Virus record (IMG/VR): IMGVR_UViG_3300023284_001318
Span: 600-64,599 of that record
DNA from: a virus
DNA: 64,000 nt
Reading direction: 5' to 3' (one strand)
The notes under the pieces were generated by a model. The model saw only the letters and a program-made list of their open reading frames with translations, made no database searches and had not been told where the DNA came from. Of the stretch, positions 2,877-57,337 are shown in pieces (the stretch's first letter is position 1; the number at the start of each line of letters is the position of its first letter). A program made the position numbers and the translations under genes.

Positions 2877-3416
2877 ATGAAGAATCGTTACGAAGTGTTA
2901 GAAAATCGTATTGTAATTTATCTCGGAAAAAGATCCAAAGACATTTTAGAGACTATTATAGACTTACAAGATCTTTCGATTGTTTCAACACTAAAAGGAT
3001 ATTGGTGGGCGCATCCACGGACCACGGGAAACTATTATGTCCGTGGTTTATTTGGTGATATTAGCGTGAGCATTCACCGTTTAGTTATGAATCCACCCAA
3101 TACTATGGAAGTAGATCATCGTGACGGAAACAGTTTGGATAACAGACGATTAAATCTCAGGATTTGTACTCATCAACAAAACGGGTGGAACTCTCCTAAG
3201 AAAGGAAAGCTATGGTCATTACGTGGAGTTAGCTATGACTCTAGAAACAAAAAATGGCAAGCAAGAATTGAACATAACAAGCGATCATATTCACTAGGAA
3301 GTTTTGAGACAGCAGAAGAAGCTGCAAGAGCCTACGATAAAGCTGCCTTAAAATTAAGACCCGATTTTGCAAGACTGAATTTTGAGAATACGGCATGTCA
3401 AGAGATAACCAAATAA
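2877..3416 (+). CDS. HNH homing endonuclease with AP2 DNA-binding domain
   Basis: [18 protein letters not shown] (HNH_3) and [30 protein letters not shown] (AP2). Confidence 0.92.
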
Positions 3417-3429
3417 GTTGATTATATCT

Positions 3430-3538
3430 TGACCCGCTGAAAAAGGTGAGCCGGAACGTCTAAAAACGTCGGTGACGACCGGAATTGATCGGAGGTTCGA
3501 CTCCTCCCGCCTGCCGAGATATCGCGGCCAGCGGGTCA
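3430..3538 (+). ncRNA. structured RNA element, copy 1 (TGACCCGCTG/CAGCGGGTCA closing stem, internal T-loop hairpin)
   Basis: 10-bp closing stem; GGAGG-TTCGACT-CCTCC and GCCG/CGGC hairpins; related copies at 54803 and 55667. Confidence 0.6.
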
Positions 3539-3549
3539 GAATAAATAAT

Positions 3550-3714
3550 ATGAGTGATTATACAGATATGATTGACGAAGGGTGTCTTTGTCAAGTTTGT
3601 GGGGAATACACCGGAGATGAGGATGGACACGGAGAGGGTGTCCGAGTCACTTGCGAGCCTTGTAAGTTTGAATCATCAAGAGGCGACGCAATCCGCAAAG
3701 GGGTGAAGCCATGA
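3550..3714 (+). CDS. small zinc-finger-like hypothetical protein
   Basis: CLCQVC...CEPC; ATG immediately after the RNA element. Confidence 0.55.
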   Translation: MSDYTDMIDEGCLCQVCGEYTGDEDGHGEGVRVTCEPCKFESSRGDAIRKGVKP

Positions 3715-3989
3715 CCGACCTGAGAAACATTGCGAAGAAAACCGCCAGTAATCTATCCTTTAGTGCTGTCCACAACGTAACTGTGTTTCAGGCAGACAAG
3801 GATATCGCCTTCCTCCTCAATGCCGTGGTGGAGGAAAGGGCTAAGCGACTGGAAGTAGAATTTTACCAATTTGACTACCGCGATTCAGATAAATCGGATG
3901 AGCGTTATAAGTGGACTGACAACGACTGGCACACCCAGGCCCTCCGCGAGCTGGACTTGGAGGGCGTGTGGCCGGGGAAGGAGAAATAA
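3711..3989 (+). CDS. hypothetical protein
   Basis: ATGA-coupled ORF. Confidence 0.55.
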   Translation: MTDLRNIAKKTASNLSFSAVHNVTVFQADKDIAFLLNAVVEERAKRLEVEFYQFDYRDSDKSDERYKWTDNDWHTQALRELDLEGVWPGKEK

Positions 3990-3992
3990 GAA

Positions 3993-4076
3993 ATGCTTAC
4001 CTTAGCAATATTTACATTAATTCTAATTCTCATCGGGATTGCTTGGTGGAGTTTGTGGCTAGTATGTGGCCGGTGA
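3993..4076 (+). CDS. 27-aa hydrophobic microprotein
   Basis: MLTLAIFTLILILIGIAWWSLWLVCGR; RBS and stop are supplied by the junction repeats. Confidence 0.45.
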   Translation: MLTLAIFTLILILIGIAWWSLWLVCGR

Positions 4077-4086
4077 AGGAGAAAAC

Positions 4087-4332
4087 ATGAGCAAGAATGA
4101 CAATCAAGATTTATTGGATCTATGTACGTTGAACCAGCTAGAAGAACATTCTGTTGGTACAGAGGAGGATGAAGCGGAATGGAAACAGGCTATCGCGCAT
4201 AGCAAACAACGGGTAATGCACCGGATTAGAGCTGGCTTACCGCCAGTCAATCCGAGTATGGCGCAGGAGCATCGCGAACGGAATCATGTTCCCGATTGCA
4301 CAGACCCGGATTGTATCTGTTGTGGCCGGTGA
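4087..4332 (+). CDS. hypothetical protein
   Basis: AAGGAG RBS; ends CICCGR inside the repeat. Confidence 0.55.
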   Translation: MSKNDNQDLLDLCTLNQLEEHSVGTEEDEAEWKQAIAHSKQRVMHRIRAGLPPVNPSMAQEHRERNHVPDCTDPDCICCGR

Positions 4333-4346
4333 AGGGAAAAAGTTAA

Positions 4347-4424
4347 ATGGATTTTCTGCTTGGCTTTGTTTTAGGTTTCGGTATTTGTTGGATATTAGCT
4401 TGTGTATTGTTTTTGCGGAATTGA
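4347..4424 (+). CDS. 25-aa hydrophobic microprotein
   Basis: MDFLLGFVLGFGICWILACVLFLRN after a junction repeat. Confidence 0.4.
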   Translation: MDFLLGFVLGFGICWILACVLFLRN

Positions 4425-4464
4425 GGTTGGTGAAGTAGGGCGTGTGGTCGGTGAAGGAAGGTGA

Positions 4465-6456: not shown

Positions 6457-6963
6457 TTATTTCTCCTTGACTACTTTAAAAGCAGCACGGCAGATTGCAA
6501 GAGGAGCGGTAGGGGCTCTTCCTACGCCCATGGATTTACCATTTACATAACAAAAACTTACATCCCATTCTTGACTACTCCATTGAATGACTAAAAGATT
6601 GCGATTCCCCATTCTGCGTATTGCTTCTATAATTTCCCAAGCAGCGGAGATGGAGATGGAGTAATACCCTAGCGGTACAAAACAATATCGGTGATGACCG
6701 TGTACCCAATTCCCCTGTCGCCTTCTTTCGAATATTTCACGCTGTTTTATTGATATGCCTAGCTGTTGCTCATCATGTTTATCTCTGAATTCATGTTCCC
6801 GCATACTATCACAGCAACATTTCGAGAACAGAAACAGCTTGTCATGGTAGGCGAATTTATCGCTAGGATGGAGGTCGATTTCTTTAACCATCGAACCAAA
6901 CACTCTTTCAGCCATCAGCTTATCCATCTCTCTGCCTGCTGGTATTTTGTCTATATCAATCAT
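6457..6963 (-). CDS. phage ABA-sandwich-like domain protein
   Basis: AGREMDKLMAERVFG...YSISISAAWEII...APLAICRAAFK. Confidence 0.7.
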   Translation of the reverse strand: MIDIDKIPAGREMDKLMAERVFGSMVKEIDLHPSDKFAYHDKLFLFSKCCCDSMREHEFRDKHDEQQLGISIKQREIFERRRQGNWVHGHHRYCFVPLGYYSISISAAWEIIEAIRRMGNRNLLVIQWSSQEWDVSFCYVNGKSMGVGRAPTAPLAICRAAFKVVKEK

Positions 6964-7277
6964 AATCCCCCCCTCCTCTTCCCCTGATGCGCTTGCCTAG
7001 CACACGGTATGCACAGCAATCTCAACACCCCTGCCCCTTGATACTCGTTAATCTCTACCTCTATATCTCTACTATGAACGTGATATGGCCGGGCGATAAT
7101 CCCGCAGCCTTCACAGATCCCCCTGGTCCTGGCCATGACCTCCTGCACTATGGCCGCCGGCGGCTTGAGAAGCTGGTGGACCCTCTGCCGAGTCACCCCC
7201 AGCCTTTGTCCTATCTCCCCTAACGTGAGGCCCTCTAGGGTGAGCTGGAGGGCTATGAGTCTGTCGTGTGGTGTCAT
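6960..7277 (-). CDS. HTH plus degenerate HNH-like protein
   Basis: LTLGEIGQRLGVTRQRVHQLL HTH; CEGC...H...LCIPC. Confidence 0.6.
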   Translation of the reverse strand: MTPHDRLIALQLTLEGLTLGEIGQRLGVTRQRVHQLLKPPAAIVQEVMARTRGICEGCGIIARPYHVHSRDIEVEINEYQGAGVLRLLCIPCARQAHQGKRRGGL

Positions 7278-7814
7278 TCCTCCCCCCCCACTTGCGGCAG
7301 TTTCCGCTCTTTTGACAAATCAATTTCTACTGATTTCCCCGTCTTTTGGTCAATCACTTCAAAATGATCGGCTGTACTCTCTTCGTGTTGAATATCCCAA
7401 GCTAATTGAGCCGCTTTTCTGGGTGTCTCGGCATACAAATCAATTTCCCATATAACGCGATAGTCGTTCATGTCTTTTCTCCTTCTACCCTTTCGCCTTT
7501 AACCTTGGCAATAAGGGTTTCAATGTCTAACTCAAGATAAACTGCGTTCGGGTCTTCAAACTCTCCAACATGTAGATTCAACATCCTCCCCGCTTTTTCT
7601 AACTTCTCCAGCAACTCCCCCGCCGCCTCGTGGAGGGGGCAGAGTTCAACCGTGTACCTCTCGGACCCAGGTTCAAGATGTAAACCACATTTCTCGCATT
7701 CCATAATCCCCCCTTATCCCTAACGCCTAGCCCACACGACCGGGGGCCGGGAGCGTTGCCCCGGAGGGCGGGCTCGTGAGCTCGCCCCAGGTCCCCGGAG
7801 GTCCGGGAGGGGGG

Positions 7815-8279
7815 TTACTCACCAAAGTAAAAGCATTGAGCATAACGGACAACAATCGCCTCATCTTCTCGGTTGAGAGGGTATTTTGTCCAGGGAGTAC
7901 CCCAATCTTGGTGCTCGATGCTGGCTGTTTCGGGTTGCGCCCATTTGTCAAGCTCCCCCACTATTCGACAAGCAGGTCCGCCGGTACAGAGCAAAATATT
8001 GTATTCTGCGGTCTCAGTATCTCTATCGCCTGGACTATGCCAATCAGACCTTACCTCAACACTGAGGGGATCTTCTTGGATAATTTGATAAGCGTCATCT
8101 CTCGCGTTATCATCCTCACCTGCTAAATCAAGAGCCGCGATCATCTCTTTAATTGATTCAAGCTGTGCCCTTGCCTGATTCTCACTATGAAATTCATCCT
8201 TTTGCTTTGCAATCATCTTTGCCCCCCCCGCCCCCGTGGGCCGTTGGTCGCTGCGCCTATCCCCTTCTCCCCATGTCAT
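7815..8279 (-). CDS. conserved phage hypothetical protein
   Basis: ILLCTGGPACRIVGELD motif. Confidence 0.55.
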   Translation of the reverse strand: MTWGEGDRRSDQRPTGAGGAKMIAKQKDEFHSENQARAQLESIKEMIAALDLAGEDDNARDDAYQIIQEDPLSVEVRSDWHSPGDRDTETAEYNILLCTGGPACRIVGELDKWAQPETASIEHQDWGTPWTKYPLNREDEAIVVRYAQCFYFGE

Positions 8280-53089: not shown

Positions 53090-53118
53090 TTGACAAGTGT
53101 CGGCAAGTGTCATAAATT
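53090..53118 (+). promoter_or_regulatory. sigma70-like promoter
   Basis: TTGACA-17-TAAATT. Confidence 0.75.
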
Positions 53119-53157: not shown

Positions 53158-53892
53158 ATGCCGAAGCTCAATCAAGTGATAGCTATCGAAAAGGGGGTCA
53201 AGAGTCGGGCCTATGCCGAACTCACCGAGACCTATAAAGTCATTCAGAAACCCGATCTTTTTCAGGGGTTTGCCAAGACCTATAGGCCCAAGGACGAAGT
53301 TGGAGAAACCTACCCGCCAGAGCACAAGAAGGTTCAGTTTAACGTCGAGTCTATTCTCAAGAAGATCGCGGGGTCCCTTGGGGATGCTATGGACGTTGCA
53401 GTTCAGAAAGATTCTGCGAACATGGGGGCACACGGGGACCTGAGTGTAGAAGAGGGCGATCTAAAGATTGAGGAACTACCCGTGACGTTCCTCTTGTCTC
53501 TGGAAAAGCAGCTTGTCGATCTTAGGACCTTTGTTACCAAGTTGCCAGTGCTGGATGAAGTGGAAGATTGGTTTTCGGATCCGAACACGGATCTTTACAA
53601 GACCAATGCCATCTCCACTCACCGCACTAAAAAGACACAGACTCCGATTGTTCTCTACGATGCTACCAAGGAACATCCTGCTCAGACTCAAATAATTACT
53701 GAAGATATCTTGGTGGGGTATTGGGAGACCATCAAGCACAGTGGCGCAATGCCAGCTCCCAGACAAGGAATCATCTTGGGTCGTCTGGGTGCCTTGCTAA
53801 AGGCAGTGAAGTTTGCGAGAGAGAAGGCGAACGAGGTGGAAGCTCCCAGGGTATCTGTTGGGGACCGAATTTTTAACTATCTATTTGCTTAA
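53158..53892 (+). CDS. conserved protein resembling the DUF7873 family
   Basis: KLNQVIAIEKGVKS, YRPKDE.GE.YPPE, TFLL.LEKQL.DL, TKK, HPAQ, VKFAREKAN (recognised from memory). Confidence 0.75.
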   Translation: MPKLNQVIAIEKGVKSRAYAELTETYKVIQKPDLFQGFAKTYRPKDEVGETYPPEHKKVQFNVESILKKIAGSLGDAMDVAVQKDSANMGAHGDLSVEEGDLKIEELPVTFLLSLEKQLVDLRTFVTKLPVLDEVEDWFSDPNTDLYKTNAISTHRTKKTQTPIVLYDATKEHPAQTQIITEDILVGYWETIKHSGAMPAPRQGIILGRLGALLKAVKFAREKANEVEAPRVSVGDRIFNYLFA

Positions 53893-53940
53893 ATAGCTTG
53901 GGGAAGCTGAATCTCATGGTCAAACTGAACAAACGGACGT

Positions 53941-53998
53941 GTAGGTTCGAATCCTACCCCCGGCTTATATATGCCGGGGTGGCGGAATTGGCAGACGC
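53941..53998 (+). ncRNA. circularly permuted tRNA-like module 1 (T arm, closed acceptor stem, D arm)
   Basis: GTAGG-TTCGAAT-CCTAC, CCCCGGC-ttatatat-GCCGGGG, TG, GCGGAATTGGCAGACGC. Confidence 0.85.
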
Positions 53999-54089
53999 TT
54001 TAAGTCCGATCAAATTTAGATTATTCCCAAGAGACTCAGCATTGTTGCGGTTGTCGAATCGAGTTCCGTTGACAACTCTTGCGGTAGAC

Positions 54090-54144
54090 GTGGGTTCAAA
54101 TCCCTCTCGGGCCTCTATATGGCCCGATAGCTTAGAGGTAGAGC
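54090..54144 (+). ncRNA. circularly permuted tRNA-like module 2
   Basis: GTGGG-TTCAAAT-CCCTC, TCGGGCC-tctatat-GGCCCGA, TA, GCTTAGAGGTAGAGC. Confidence 0.85.
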
Positions 54145-54228
54145 GACTGCAATTAGATTTATGCAACGGATTAAATGTCATCGACAACTCAAATCGCAAC
54201 AGTATCGCGGAAGGCGGTACACCATGCG

Positions 54229-54268
54229 GGTAGGGGGGAATGGATACTCCCCCCTACCTATTTTTTTT
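54229..54268 (+). terminator. intrinsic terminator
   Basis: GGTAGGGGGGA/TCCCCCCTACC stem followed by a T run. Confidence 0.9.
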
Positions 54269-54273
54269 GATTT

Positions 54274-54453: not shown

Positions 54454-54802
54454 AGATAAAGGTTCGTTATAGTTTCAGTGTAGGTTCTGATCTTTTTAAA
54501 TATCGGGCAGCCTGTTGGGTTTGGTTCCCGCTGGAAGAATTATCTGGGTTTGGTACAGATAGTTTTGAAGAAGCGAAAACGGATCTTATTCGATTAGTCA
54601 AATTATGGATGCTCAAACCCAAGAATCCGCGACCAGAGAAAGTGATAGTGCTGTTATGATCGTCTCCGACCCCGGCTGGCACTACCACAAATGCCAATGC
54701 GACTACGAGTGTGATGTGACCAAGGGACCATGTACTTGCCGGGATACGGTTTGGACCTGTGAATATTGTACGGAAGGGAAGTGTCAAGAAAAATGAAGGA
54801 CT

Positions 54803-54922
54803 TGGCCCGCTGCGGCGTTCCAGCGTTGGGTAGCCCTCGCATAGGCTCAGACTACCTTCTGGAGTAGCAAGGTCGGGGTCTATGGCTGTTGGAGCCGGGT
54901 GGGGAATCCGGCCAGCGGGTCA
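54803..54922 (+). ncRNA. structured RNA element, copy 2
   Basis: TGGCCCGCTG...CAGCGGGTCA followed by GGATAA and an RBS. Confidence 0.6.
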
Positions 54923-54943
54923 GGATAATTAAAGGAGGTAGCT

Positions 54944-55660
54944 ATGTCAGAAGTAATAACGGCTAACATTGAGGATTTACTAGCTAGGTTACGAAATGAG
55001 AATCAGTCTTGCGAAGAAGCAAGTCCACGATCCAAAGAAACTTTTATCCCATGTGGCGCTCCTGCAGTCGCACTCGTAGACAATGGGGATTCCCGTCCTT
55101 ACTTCATGTGTTTTGGCTGTGCTGACCACAACGAGAAGAATCGGGGGGCAAAAATTCTAGGAACAAAGGACGCTATGTATCAAGTAAGAGGTGGCCAAAC
55201 AGTTTATAGTGAAACATTGGCCAGACCCTCTACCGACACCACCCTCAACCAACTCTTCTCTCAGTACGCCATTCTGAGTACGGACAAGGACCAGAAAGAA
55301 ATGGAGTTAGATGCCATAGATGCAGCTATTACTGATCTTAATGCTCAGATTATTCCACTTATGGTAGAGCTGGAATTTCAATCTATTGATTATAATGGCG
55401 AGAAGTATTATCTGGCTGTGCCAGAGAGGCCCTCTATAATTCCGGAAACTCGGGACGATTTTATGGTGTGGCTCGAAGCAAACGGTGAATACGGTATTGT
55501 GCAGACGACTTACGTCAACAGTAATACCTTGTGGTCCTGGCGAAATAATTTGGACGAAGTCAAGAAAGAGGCATTGGCAGCATTGGGATATTTGAAAATC
55601 AGTGAAGATATTCAACTGCGTAGGTCGAAGGGGTACAAGAGGACTAGGAAGAAGAAATAA
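54944..55660 (+). CDS. phage recombination-module protein (N-terminal Cys motif, coiled coil)
   Basis: coiled coil then WLEANGE.GIV...VN.NTL..W. Confidence 0.5.
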   Translation: MSEVITANIEDLLARLRNENQSCEEASPRSKETFIPCGAPAVALVDNGDSRPYFMCFGCADHNEKNRGAKILGTKDAMYQVRGGQTVYSETLARPSTDTTLNQLFSQYAILSTDKDQKEMELDAIDAAITDLNAQIIPLMVELEFQSIDYNGEKYYLAVPERPSIIPETRDDFMVWLEANGEYGIVQTTYVNSNTLWSWRNNLDEVKKEALAALGYLKISEDIQLRRSKGYKRTRKKK

Positions 55661-55666
55661 CCAACT

Positions 55667-55734
55667 TGACCCGCTGCGCTGGTGCTGGTCTGAGGATTGA
55701 AAAGACTGGAATGAGGCCACTGGCCGGCGGGTCA
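55667..55734 (+). ncRNA. structured RNA element, copy 3
   Basis: TGACCCGCTG...CGGCGGGTCA followed by GGATAA and an RBS. Confidence 0.6.
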
Positions 55735-55759
55735 GGATAACAAAGGGAGGGACTCGGGG

Positions 55760-56323
55760 ATGGCTGAAATAAAGATACCGTTTGAATTAGGTTCTACTTT
55801 GTGGTGGACCGGAAGTGGTTACAGGGAAGAATGGATCGAATGCTCCGAATGTGTGGGAAGTAAGGCAATTACGATGATTCAAGGGAACGGAACGGAGGTT
55901 TCCATTGCCTGTGCGTGTTGCTCCCATGGGATGGAGCGTCCGTCTGGTTCTGTTAAGCGTATATTTTATGAACACAGCCCGATGCTTTTTGTACCTAAAC
56001 GTGTCCGTGTTGACGGAGGAGAGATTATGTATTCCTCTGCATCACCGGGGGCTAATGCTTACAGTTCCATTGATGCCACTGCCCTTTTTGCCTCAAAAGA
56101 AGAATGCGAAGCTCGGTGCAAGGAATTAAACCTAGAGCGCACTAAATATGAGGAGGAACGTGCGGTTGCTAACCTAGCACCAAAGCGACGTGACATGGCA
56201 TGGTCGGCGCACTATTGGGGGAGGCAAGTCAAGCGACTAGAGGAAGAGTTGATAACGTGCCGAGCGCGACTCGCTGTGTGCAAAACAAGAGATGAGAAGA
56301 AAAAAGAAAGTGTTGACATATGA
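55760..56323 (+). CDS. zinc-finger hypothetical protein
   Basis: CSECVG...CACC. Confidence 0.6.
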   Translation: MAEIKIPFELGSTLWWTGSGYREEWIECSECVGSKAITMIQGNGTEVSIACACCSHGMERPSGSVKRIFYEHSPMLFVPKRVRVDGGEIMYSSASPGANAYSSIDATALFASKEECEARCKELNLERTKYEEERAVANLAPKRRDMAWSAHYWGRQVKRLEEELITCRARLAVCKTRDEKKKESVDI

Positions 56324-57337
56324 GTGCCTGCGGCTGCACATGCCACACAGATGAGTACCCGAGATATGCCGATACTTGCGGAGTGGTCGTGTGCCTCGAT
56401 TGCAAGACCGAGCCTTGCGAGACGGTGTTGGAGGAGCAGAGGATGGAGAATGATAAGGAGGACTAATGGGCTACTTCATTTTATACCTTATTTTTCATTT
56501 AAGCTGCGCTGTGCTTAGTGCTGGGATGGTATTTGCCTATGTTCAAAAAGAATGGTCTTCATTGGCCAAAGAAGAGTACCGACAAGATTTATCAAAATCT
56601 TGGGGAATAAGTTTAATCGGTGGACCGATATCCCTGGCTGTTGCTTTCTTTATGACTGGTTTTGTGGAACATGGTTTTAAATGGCGGTAACGGATAAGAA
56701 GGAGGGGTGATTATGATTAAAAATGTCGTTCTTACTGTTATTGCTATCGGCAGTATTCTATTCGGTGTAGCAGTGCTGTTGAGTCCTATTAGCTACGGAG
56801 AATATTATTGGAGTTATAAAAACGGATGGTATCCTAAGCAAACGAAATTTGAACAGGGAATGACTTTATACCCGCATCAATCAGCAGGGATACCAATGAT
56901 TTTTCAAATTCCAAAGGGTTCGACATTGTGTTTTGAGCCAGATCCCAATGTATCACGAGAACTATGGTGTAAGGAGGACTAATCATGGTCTGGCCTTGCT
57001 GGCATAGATGGGCAAAGTGGGAGGTATATGAAAAACGGTATGACTACTATCCTGGTACGAGTGCTCCTCTGAATATACAAGGCAAACAATTAGCGTGTTC
57101 GGATTTAAGACAGAAGCGTAATTGTGAGAAATGTGGTAGAAGGCAAGACGAATTAATCACGGAAGGAGCATAATCATGGACTGCGTTCAGTGTCATAGAC
57201 GGCCAGCTCCGTTGGGGCAAGCAGCGTGTAGCTTTTGTTGGGGATGTGCGATTGCCATGGCTTATACTCCGGTAATGGCTTTGCTTATTTTTGGCGTTTT
57301 ATATCTACTTGGAGTCTTCTAAGAAAGGAGCCTAACC

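Follow-up and report, generated by a model that had tools for sequence, protein, structure and literature searches.

Three gene junctions of a metagenomic phage share a conserved 12-bp closing helix around unrelated interiors, very probably as sense-strand RNA structures

The window, i.e. the entire stretch of 64,000 nt that was analysed, comprises bases 600-64599 of a complete 65,083-bp IMG/VR phage record with terminal repeats. Its genes are densely packed and lie for the most part on the + strand, and Pfam/PHROG-type searches identified among them a primase-helicase, a SNF2 helicase, a DNA methylase, a terminase and a P22-type portal protein. No close isolated phage was found, and searches for the nearest isolated phage or host gave nothing useful. 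The list of open reading frames in the window contains none of the size of a phage RNA polymerase, hence the host polymerase should transcribe this phage. A search of the phage for an RNase III gene did not find one, and together with the missing polymerase-size ORF this means that host enzymes must act. The phage also carries a tRNA-mimic RNA, a TIGR array and a VIPR array.

Exactly three copies of an intergenic element exist in the window, all on the + strand, at 3428-3540 (W1), 54801-54924 (W2) and 55665-55736 (W3). A preceding sequence-only reading had reported three copies of a shared closing stem; all were recovered where it had placed them, and the stem can be extended by two bases per side to 12 bp with the consensus CUUGRCCCGCUG / CRGCGGGUCAGR. 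No further copies occur in the whole 65,083-bp record, even when up to two mismatches per arm are permitted. The elements and their neighbouring genes are arranged as follows.

3428-3540, + strand: element W1, a stem of 11 pairs plus a terminal C-A, enclosing an 89-nt interior with two branches, one a helix with a variable hairpin and the T-arm, the other the GC hairpin
3428-3439, + strand: 5' arm of W1, CTTGACCCGCTG, beginning 11 nt past the stop codon (3414-3416) of the HNH-AP2 endonuclease gene
3491-3507, + strand: tRNA-type T-arm of W1, GGAGG-TTCGACT-CCTCC
3513-3528, + strand: 3'-terminal GC hairpin of W1, with 0 unpaired bases before the 3' arm
3529-3540, + strand: 3' arm of W1, CAGCGGGTCAGA
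3550-3714, + strand: gene 3' of W1, encoding a 54-aa CxxC...CxxC protein, start codon 10 nt past the stem
54605-54796, + strand: gene 5' of W2, encoding a 63-aa Cys-rich protein, stop codon 4 nt before W2
54801-54924, + strand: element W2 (A-type), a 12-bp stem with a branched 100-nt interior, arms CTTGGCCCGCTG (54801-54812) and CAGCGGGTCAGG (54913-54924)
54925-54943, + strand: tail of W2, ATAATTAAAGGAGG, with a Shine-Dalgarno site, followed by the DUF7307 start codon at 54944
54944-55660, + strand: DUF7307 (Pam3 gp33-like) gene between W2 and W3, its product with a basic C-terminal tail (KRxRKKK)
55665-55736, + strand: element W3 (B-type), a long imperfect hairpin with a 48-nt interior, beginning 4 nt past the DUF7307 stop, arms CTTGACCCGCTG (55665-55676) and CGGCGGGTCAGG (55725-55736)
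55737-55759, + strand: tail of W3, ATAACAAAGGGAGGG, with a Shine-Dalgarno site, followed by a start codon at 55760
55760-56323, + strand: gene 3' of W3, variable, 187 aa, absent or replaced in relatives

The interiors of 48-100 nt are structured, and the statement that they are unrelated in sequence holds across all three window copies. The closing stem is present in the unconstrained minimum-energy fold of each copy, with folding z-scores of -3.8 (W1), -1.9 (W2) and -5.2 (W3). Read from its base, W3 consists of the 12-bp stem, a 1-nt bulge, 7 bp, an 8-nt one-sided internal loop, another 7 bp and an 11-nt apical loop. The hairpin ending in GGC that had been described just before the 3' strand abuts it without any unpaired base in 3/3 window copies, and the tRNA T-loop claimed for the first copy is indeed part of a canonical T-arm. 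Each window element starts 4-11 nt past a stop codon and ends 10-23 nt ahead of the next start codon. The Shine-Dalgarno sites after W2 and W3 are strong and W1 has none; likewise, the tail motif is present at W2 and W3 only. The tail of W3 has been kept along with the element in the related contig L009 despite a different downstream gene. The 54-aa protein encoded after W1 has no Pfam or PHROG match, and no family match was obtained for the 187-aa protein encoded after W3. The 10-mer arm motif with at most one mismatch was found 11 times, compared to 5.4 expected, and this count by itself is weak support. What lifts the feature above chance is that the arms are paired, that they lie between genes and that relatives conserve them with covariation. 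The T-arm motif GGTTCRANTCC occurs three times in the window versus 0.33 expected, and the other two copies belong to the tRNA-mimic RNA at 53.9-54.1 kb.

Several other features lie close to the elements. The gene for the free-standing HNH-AP2 homing endonuclease (2877-3416) has its own promoter-like site at 2850, and no link to W1 was found. A second kind of conserved linker, a junction repeat (GTGGCCGGTGAAGGAGAAA and variants), occupies 3967-4459 just downstream of W1 and provides the stop codon and the ribosome-binding site for several micro-ORFs. The tRNA-mimic RNA (53896-54270) is non-coding and contains two tRNA-type T-arms, each followed by a closed acceptor-like hairpin and by a second hairpin that resembles a D-arm, which corresponds to a permuted tRNA mimic. 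A strong intrinsic terminator (54228-54270) forms its end, and upstream of it lies a DUF7873 gene (53158-53892) that has a promoter-like site at 53090.

Searches with the DUF7307 gene and with two-arm DNA patterns identified relatives, in which eight further elements are found at syntenic sites of five related metagenomic phage contigs, giving 11 elements in six contigs. A-type elements upstream of DUF7307 (W2, L008A, L009A, L041A and L044A) have interiors of 100-185 nt, and B-type elements downstream of DUF7307 (W3, L008B, L009B and two copies in L045) have interiors of 46-48 nt. The A-type elements have the closing stem and one hairpin each on the 5' and 3' side in common, with a centre that varies freely in length; L008A contains two T-arm hairpins. 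The presence of the elements varies singly among the relatives, since L045 is devoid of the A-type and L044 of the B-type. For the W1 region, protein searches revealed no relatives. Two-arm scans of IMG/VR (inner distances of 40-70 and 75-105 nt) returned just two known relatives and chance matches in GC-rich contigs, a 16-mer scan gave matches at chance level, and a metagenome scan gave none. Among 185,579 species genomes, 44 matches were obtained, all of them in GC-rich coding sequence or in REP pairs of the GTAGGGCGGGTCTTGACCCGCC type and none related. Such inverted pairs of REP-like palindromes (GTAGGGCGGGTCTTGACCCGCC or CATCGGCGGGCTTGACCCGCC) are abundant in Xanthomonadales-type and Aestuariivirga MAGs (bacterial contigs L050, L052, L056, L058, L063, L066, L067, L069, L071, L073, L075, L079, L083 and L084); their agreement with the arm pattern is fortuitous, and they have no relationship to the phage elements. 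The element family is rare, being found in six contigs, real and conserved, and it is so far undescribed.

The anatomy of the junctions is common to the 11 elements. A stop codon is situated 3-11 nt before the stem and a start codon 10-23 nt after it. The distance from stop codon to stem amounts to 3-5 nt in 8/11 elements, 7 nt in L008A and 11 nt in W1, whichever gene lies upstream. A purine-rich, Shine-Dalgarno-like run precedes the start codon in every copy except W1, 4-9 nt past the helix, and the predicted folds leave the Shine-Dalgarno region unpaired. Between the last inner helix and the 3' strand there are 0-1 unpaired nt in each of the 11 elements, hence coaxial stacking of this helix on the closing stem is possible. 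The resulting duplex length is approximately 25 bp in the B-type, including bulge and internal loop, and 16-20 bp in the A-type and in W1, where this length is reached only with stacking.

The comparison of the 11 closing stems allows a distinction between pairing on the RNA and on the DNA level. On the sense strand they form 111 Watson-Crick pairs, 20 G-U pairs and one mismatch; the same stems read on the antisense strand contain 20 C-A mismatches. Four stem positions are fully compensated, and the changes pass through wobble intermediates: position 5 is found as A-U, G-U, G-C and C-G, position 7 as C-G, U-G and U-A, position 11 as U-A, U-G and C-G, and position 12 as G-C, G-U and A-U. The alignment of the B-type elements describes one long hairpin, in which 98.3% of the cells are paired versus 23-50% with slid partners; ten of its pairs show double changes, and its covariation score was reached by 0/500 shuffles. 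Without exception, the 11 elements are on the sense strand relative to their genes, and this holds even for the two L045 copies that point in opposite directions. The two deviations from which the sequence-only reading had argued for RNA-level pairing are both G-U pairs on the + strand, and this argument is now strongly supported by the wobbles and compensated pairs of the sense strand as opposed to the 20 mismatches of the antisense strand, by the inner helices of the B-type that are kept through double changes, and generally by the covariation that is present among the homologues. Its counterpart, a DNA-binding protein recognising the inverted repeat regardless of pairing, is disfavoured because pairing is preserved on one strand only. 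Hence, the conserved feature is an RNA structure on the sense strand and not a DNA palindrome, and we regard it as very probable that the elements are part of polycistronic mRNA in this form. A role as single-stranded DNA would be less economical than an RNA role. As a further observation, a U-G wobble occupies the second stem pair from the helix base in 9/11 elements and the third position in L041A; wobbles that are conserved close to the end of a helix often serve in recognition.

The stem sequence is conserved beyond the needs of pairing. Seven of the 12 closing pairs are essentially invariant over the 11 elements from six contigs, whereas the flanking proteins are just 50-80% identical, and in the inner B-type helix 0/8 pairs are invariant. 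Moreover, one stem is common to three unrelated interiors within one genome. Between the window and the L009 contig, element plus tail are 91% identical compared to 74% for the neighbouring genes. The contig L045 harbours two diverged module copies of opposite orientation at 2900-4300 (-) and 6800-7900 (+), consisting of a Cys-rich gene, a small ORF, a gene for the DUF7307 C-domain and a B-type element, and the interiors of the two B-type elements are identical. The elements of these paralogous modules are 93% identical and the genes 75%, which suggests gene conversion or strong selection on the element. Collectively, the constraint on the stem and the fact that the elements outconserve the genes indicate that the helix is recognised by some factor, or homogenised by recombination, or both. 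Structure, covariation, stem constraint and the order of stop codon, stem, Shine-Dalgarno site and start codon are direct observations on these elements.

In this phage lineage, the elements mark precise joints of gene exchange. Homology relative to the window stops exactly at the start codon that follows the B-type element: the 187-aa gene comes next in the window and a different gene in L008 and L009, while in L045 one copy runs directly into a homologue of window 56320-56466 and the other copy into yet another gene. A direct repeat of 3' arm, tail and Shine-Dalgarno site borders a small ORF of L008 on both sides; the true arm is located near 2790, and the copy near 2976 is degenerate and supplies the final codons of this ORF. 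The DUF7307 region is generally split in several relatives into such a small ORF (MxxK...GQFIQIAAAG...EQPAGKDN) and a following C-domain gene (L008 2820-3010; L045 7005-7200 and 3800-3610 (-)), the last codons of the small ORF being a degenerate copy of the 3' arm and tail of the element. The DUF7307 protein of the window has a different, Cys-rich N-terminal domain fused in place of the separate small ORF. A search for a partner of the pseudo-3'-arm in the small ORF of L045 gave a best pairing of 10/12, which is chance level.

Several known identities were rejected. Searching the whole window with Rfam release 15 at gathering scores gave no match, and at E values up to 10 the three element regions yielded chance-level fragments only, with 7.7-14.8 bits versus cut-offs of 40-68, so the elements do not correspond to a known family that an Rfam scan might have revealed. 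ARAGORN finds no tRNA or tmRNA gene in the window, L008 and L009; W1 and L008A contain isolated T-arms only. The idea of RNase P-, C4- or tRNA-like elements can be retained at most for the first copy and L008A, on account of their T-arms; ARAGORN, Rfam and the covariance model of YrlA (RF02553) are all empty at the elements. The elements match no described RNA family tested here, and their function can only be inferred. The proposal that the interiors represent variable antisense cargo is not supported, because a short-word BLAST against the whole window returned matches of 11-13 nt only, as expected by chance, and no longer complement exists in the phage genome. A sigma-70 promoter split by the stem would comprise TTGAC in the 5' arm and GATAA after the 3' arm, approximately 60-115 nt apart and thus far over a workable spacer; a promoter consensus scan with a hexamer spacer of 16-18 also detected no promoter-like site at the elements. 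An intrinsic terminator was dismissed since a U-tract is absent at the elements, and a retron msr-msd since no reverse transcriptase gene is adjacent and RVT_1 has 0 matches in the genome.

The earlier description as a family of processing or leader elements appears still to be the best reading of these sequences. The likeliest role, which we put forward tentatively, may be processing or insulation between cistrons, carried out by a factor specific for double strands, for example the RNase III of the host. The 12-bp helix would join the end of one cistron to the ribosome-binding site of the next, and together with the stacked inner helix it would form about 17-25 bp of near-continuous duplex, a size that could be read by a double-strand-specific factor, most likely the RNase III of the host. 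Cleavage or binding at this duplex would separate the cistrons, leaving the upstream message with a structure that protects its 3' end and the downstream ribosome-binding site in a fixed, unpaired context. The conserved linker of 70-100 nt might double as recombination joint for gene swaps as a side effect. Transcription, the identity of the factor, cleavage and the effect on expression are what we infer here. However, the closing stem of 12 bp alone is short for RNase III, the branched interiors of the A-type and W1 are unlike classical phage RNase III sites, and W1 without a Shine-Dalgarno site speaks against a processing role. The element is found at only 3 of approximately 100 gene junctions, hence it is not a general punctuation system. 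The conserved stem sequence would fit a dedicated phage RNA-binding protein equally well. In this regard it might be possible, albeit doubtful, that the 12-bp helix is a sequence-specific 'socket' for a dedicated protein, into which evolution has plugged unrelated structured RNAs that the factor excises or displays. Candidate proteins would be the Cys-rich protein, DUF7307 or a factor that is partner of the tRNA-mimic RNA, and the plugged RNAs would be the long hairpin, the branched RNAs and the T-arm or tRNA-like modules.

Other explanations assign the conserved helix to translation or to an RNA product. A small phage RNA-binding protein sitting on the closing helix could tune translation of the downstream gene up or down, as the Com protein of phage Mu acts on translation of the mom mRNA. 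Candidates for such an operator-binding protein are the 63-aa Cys-rich protein encoded upstream of the A-type, the 54-aa CxxC protein encoded after W1 and DUF7307 with its KRxRKKK tail. This explanation would account for a stem sequence that is kept beyond pairing, for the helix end located 4-9 nt before the Shine-Dalgarno site, and for a small Cys-rich gene and DUF7307 that accompany the elements in 6/6 contigs, with DUF7307 between two elements in three phages. However, the six contigs are syntenic relatives, hence this co-occurrence is not independent, no RNA-binding family was detected by Pfam/PHROG, a Foldseek search of the PDB with a DUF7307 model of medium quality (pLDDT 69) returned no usable match, and none of the predicted folds sequesters the Shine-Dalgarno site, which altogether makes an operator rather unlikely. 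Similarly unlikely in our view is that the enclosed RNAs, some of them tRNA-like, are the product, i.e. stable non-coding RNAs for which the stem acts as handle or excision signal and which would be kin in kind to YrlA/Y-RNA-like mimics, of which the tRNA-mimic RNA of this phage is an example. The order stem, variable hairpin, T-arm, hairpin, stem in W1 matches the V-T-AS order of YrlA (PMC4201824), L008A has two T-arm hairpins, the other T-arm motifs are confined to the tRNA-mimic RNA, and the inner structure of the B-type is held by compensatory changes. Nevertheless, 9/11 elements have no T-arm, the YrlA model matches the window at 53915-54173 only, i.e. the mimic RNA (33.2 and 17.5 bits, cut-off 69) and none of the three elements, a TROVE/Ro60 gene has 0 matches in the complete phage record, and the elements have neither promoter nor terminator of their own and are placed exactly between stop codon and ribosome-binding site.

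The constant spacing at these junctions could alternatively point to structure-bridged translational coupling, in which the helix loops out 46-185 nt and sets the terminating ribosome beside the next Shine-Dalgarno site and start codon for re-initiation, a logic that resembles the ribosomal shunt of plant pararetroviruses, where a stem is bypassed. The distances from stop codon to stem (3-11 nt) and from stem to start codon (10-23 nt) are kept though the upstream genes differ, but a bacterial ribosome that terminates there would itself open several pairs at the foot of the stem, genome compaction and shared flank sequence may suffice to explain the short spacing, and downstream genes have strong Shine-Dalgarno sites of their own, so that we consider such coupling quite improbable. 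It is very unlikely that the element acts at the DNA level, be it solely as a PeSL-like recombination linker, as an attC-like site in single-stranded DNA or as a priming signal. The gene content after the B-type, which differs in 4/5 cases with homology ending at the start codon, would suit such a role, as would the small ORF of L008 within its direct repeat of 3' arm, tail and Shine-Dalgarno site, and G-T pairs are tolerated in DNA hairpins. However, a stem would be superfluous in a pure recombination linker, and its pairing would not be held via compensated changes, the phage has no tyrosine recombinase (Phage_integrase family, 0 matches in the complete genome) and no reverse transcriptase, a promoter cannot fit between stem and start codon, and in either orientation it is the strand in the direction of transcription that folds. 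A mobile element of the MITE or REP kind was also rejected, because target-site duplications are missing at the flanks and the three interiors are unrelated within one genome; the bacterial look-alikes are the unrelated REP pairs mentioned above. Finally, a palindromic operator in double-stranded DNA for a dimeric repressor would explain a sequence-conserved inverted repeat upstream of genes, but the half-sites are 46-185 bp apart with variable spacing, and substitutions that preserve pairing on one strand only are meaningless for duplex DNA; hence, this explanation has a negligible probability.

The annotation of phage gene expression is usually restricted to promoters and terminators, and conserved intercistronic RNA structures have rarely been recognised outside T7. 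The evidence at the RNA level is unusually clean for so small a family, given the strand-specific wobbles and stepwise compensated changes, and the design, with a closing helix conserved in sequence and replaceable contents, some of them with tRNA-type T-arms, is uncommon. If the helix is a processing or binding site, it would represent a compact, portable part for the separation of cistrons and a handle for finding its reader. If it serves as a socket for a dedicated protein, the phage would possess a modular RNA-cassette system, in which mRNA punctuation and the production of small structured RNAs are one event, and a release of the enclosed RNAs would be a new route to phage small RNAs.

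Among known systems, the ESAS of Cluster K mycobacteriophages have inverted repeats of 17 bp that are separated by 4-13 bp and precede the 13-bp SAS motif GGGATAGGAGCCC at the start codon, and a role in translation has been suggested for them (PMC3203893). The present elements resemble ESAS/SAS as imperfect, conserved inverted repeats with a variable spacer, located just upstream of the starts of a subset of non-structural genes in one orientation. They differ by arms of 12 nt and a spacer of 46-185 nt, by the lack of any SAS counterpart, no shared 13-mer of this kind being found, and by the RNA-level covariation observed here, hence this identity was rejected. The PeSL of T4-type phages combine a stem-loop terminator with an early promoter (PMC2839356, PMC4122927) and are similar as conserved intergenic stem-loop motifs that border variable genes and act as modular exchange points. 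However, our elements contain no U-tract and leave no room for a promoter in the 10-23 nt from stem to start codon, neither promoter- nor terminator-like sites were found at them, which excluded a PeSL cassette, and it is the interior that varies while the stem is kept. With YrlA they share the long stem of 5' and 3' ends around stem-loops and, in W1 and L008A, the tRNA-type T-arms (PMC4201824), and the tRNA-mimic RNA of the phage is located 0.5 kb upstream of W2. Unlike YrlA, they are not matched by the covariance model, they lack a D-arm and an accompanying Ro60 gene, most copies have no T-arm, and they occupy the gap from a stop codon to a ribosome-binding site. Integron attC sites likewise flank genes and fold in a strand-specific manner from imperfect inverted repeats, of which the ends are conserved and the centre varies; they were rejected since the complete phage genome has no integrase match and the arms do not fit the R/L-box consensus RYYYAAC/GTTRRRY, and in our elements it is the sense strand that folds, immediately before a ribosome-binding site. 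The RNase III sites of phage T7 (R0.3 ... R18.5) are found in early and late mRNAs and form an imperfect duplex of about two helical turns. The closing helix of the present elements measures only 12 bp, and two of the three types have large branched interiors of up to 185 nt, some with T-arms, in both of which they are unlike the T7 sites. In common with these, they are intercistronic and would lie on the sense strand of long phage transcripts with no obvious local promoter. By analogy, the few copies, the common stem sequence and the imperfect B-type hairpin of approximately 25 bp with bulge and internal loop would also be reminiscent of the T7 sites.
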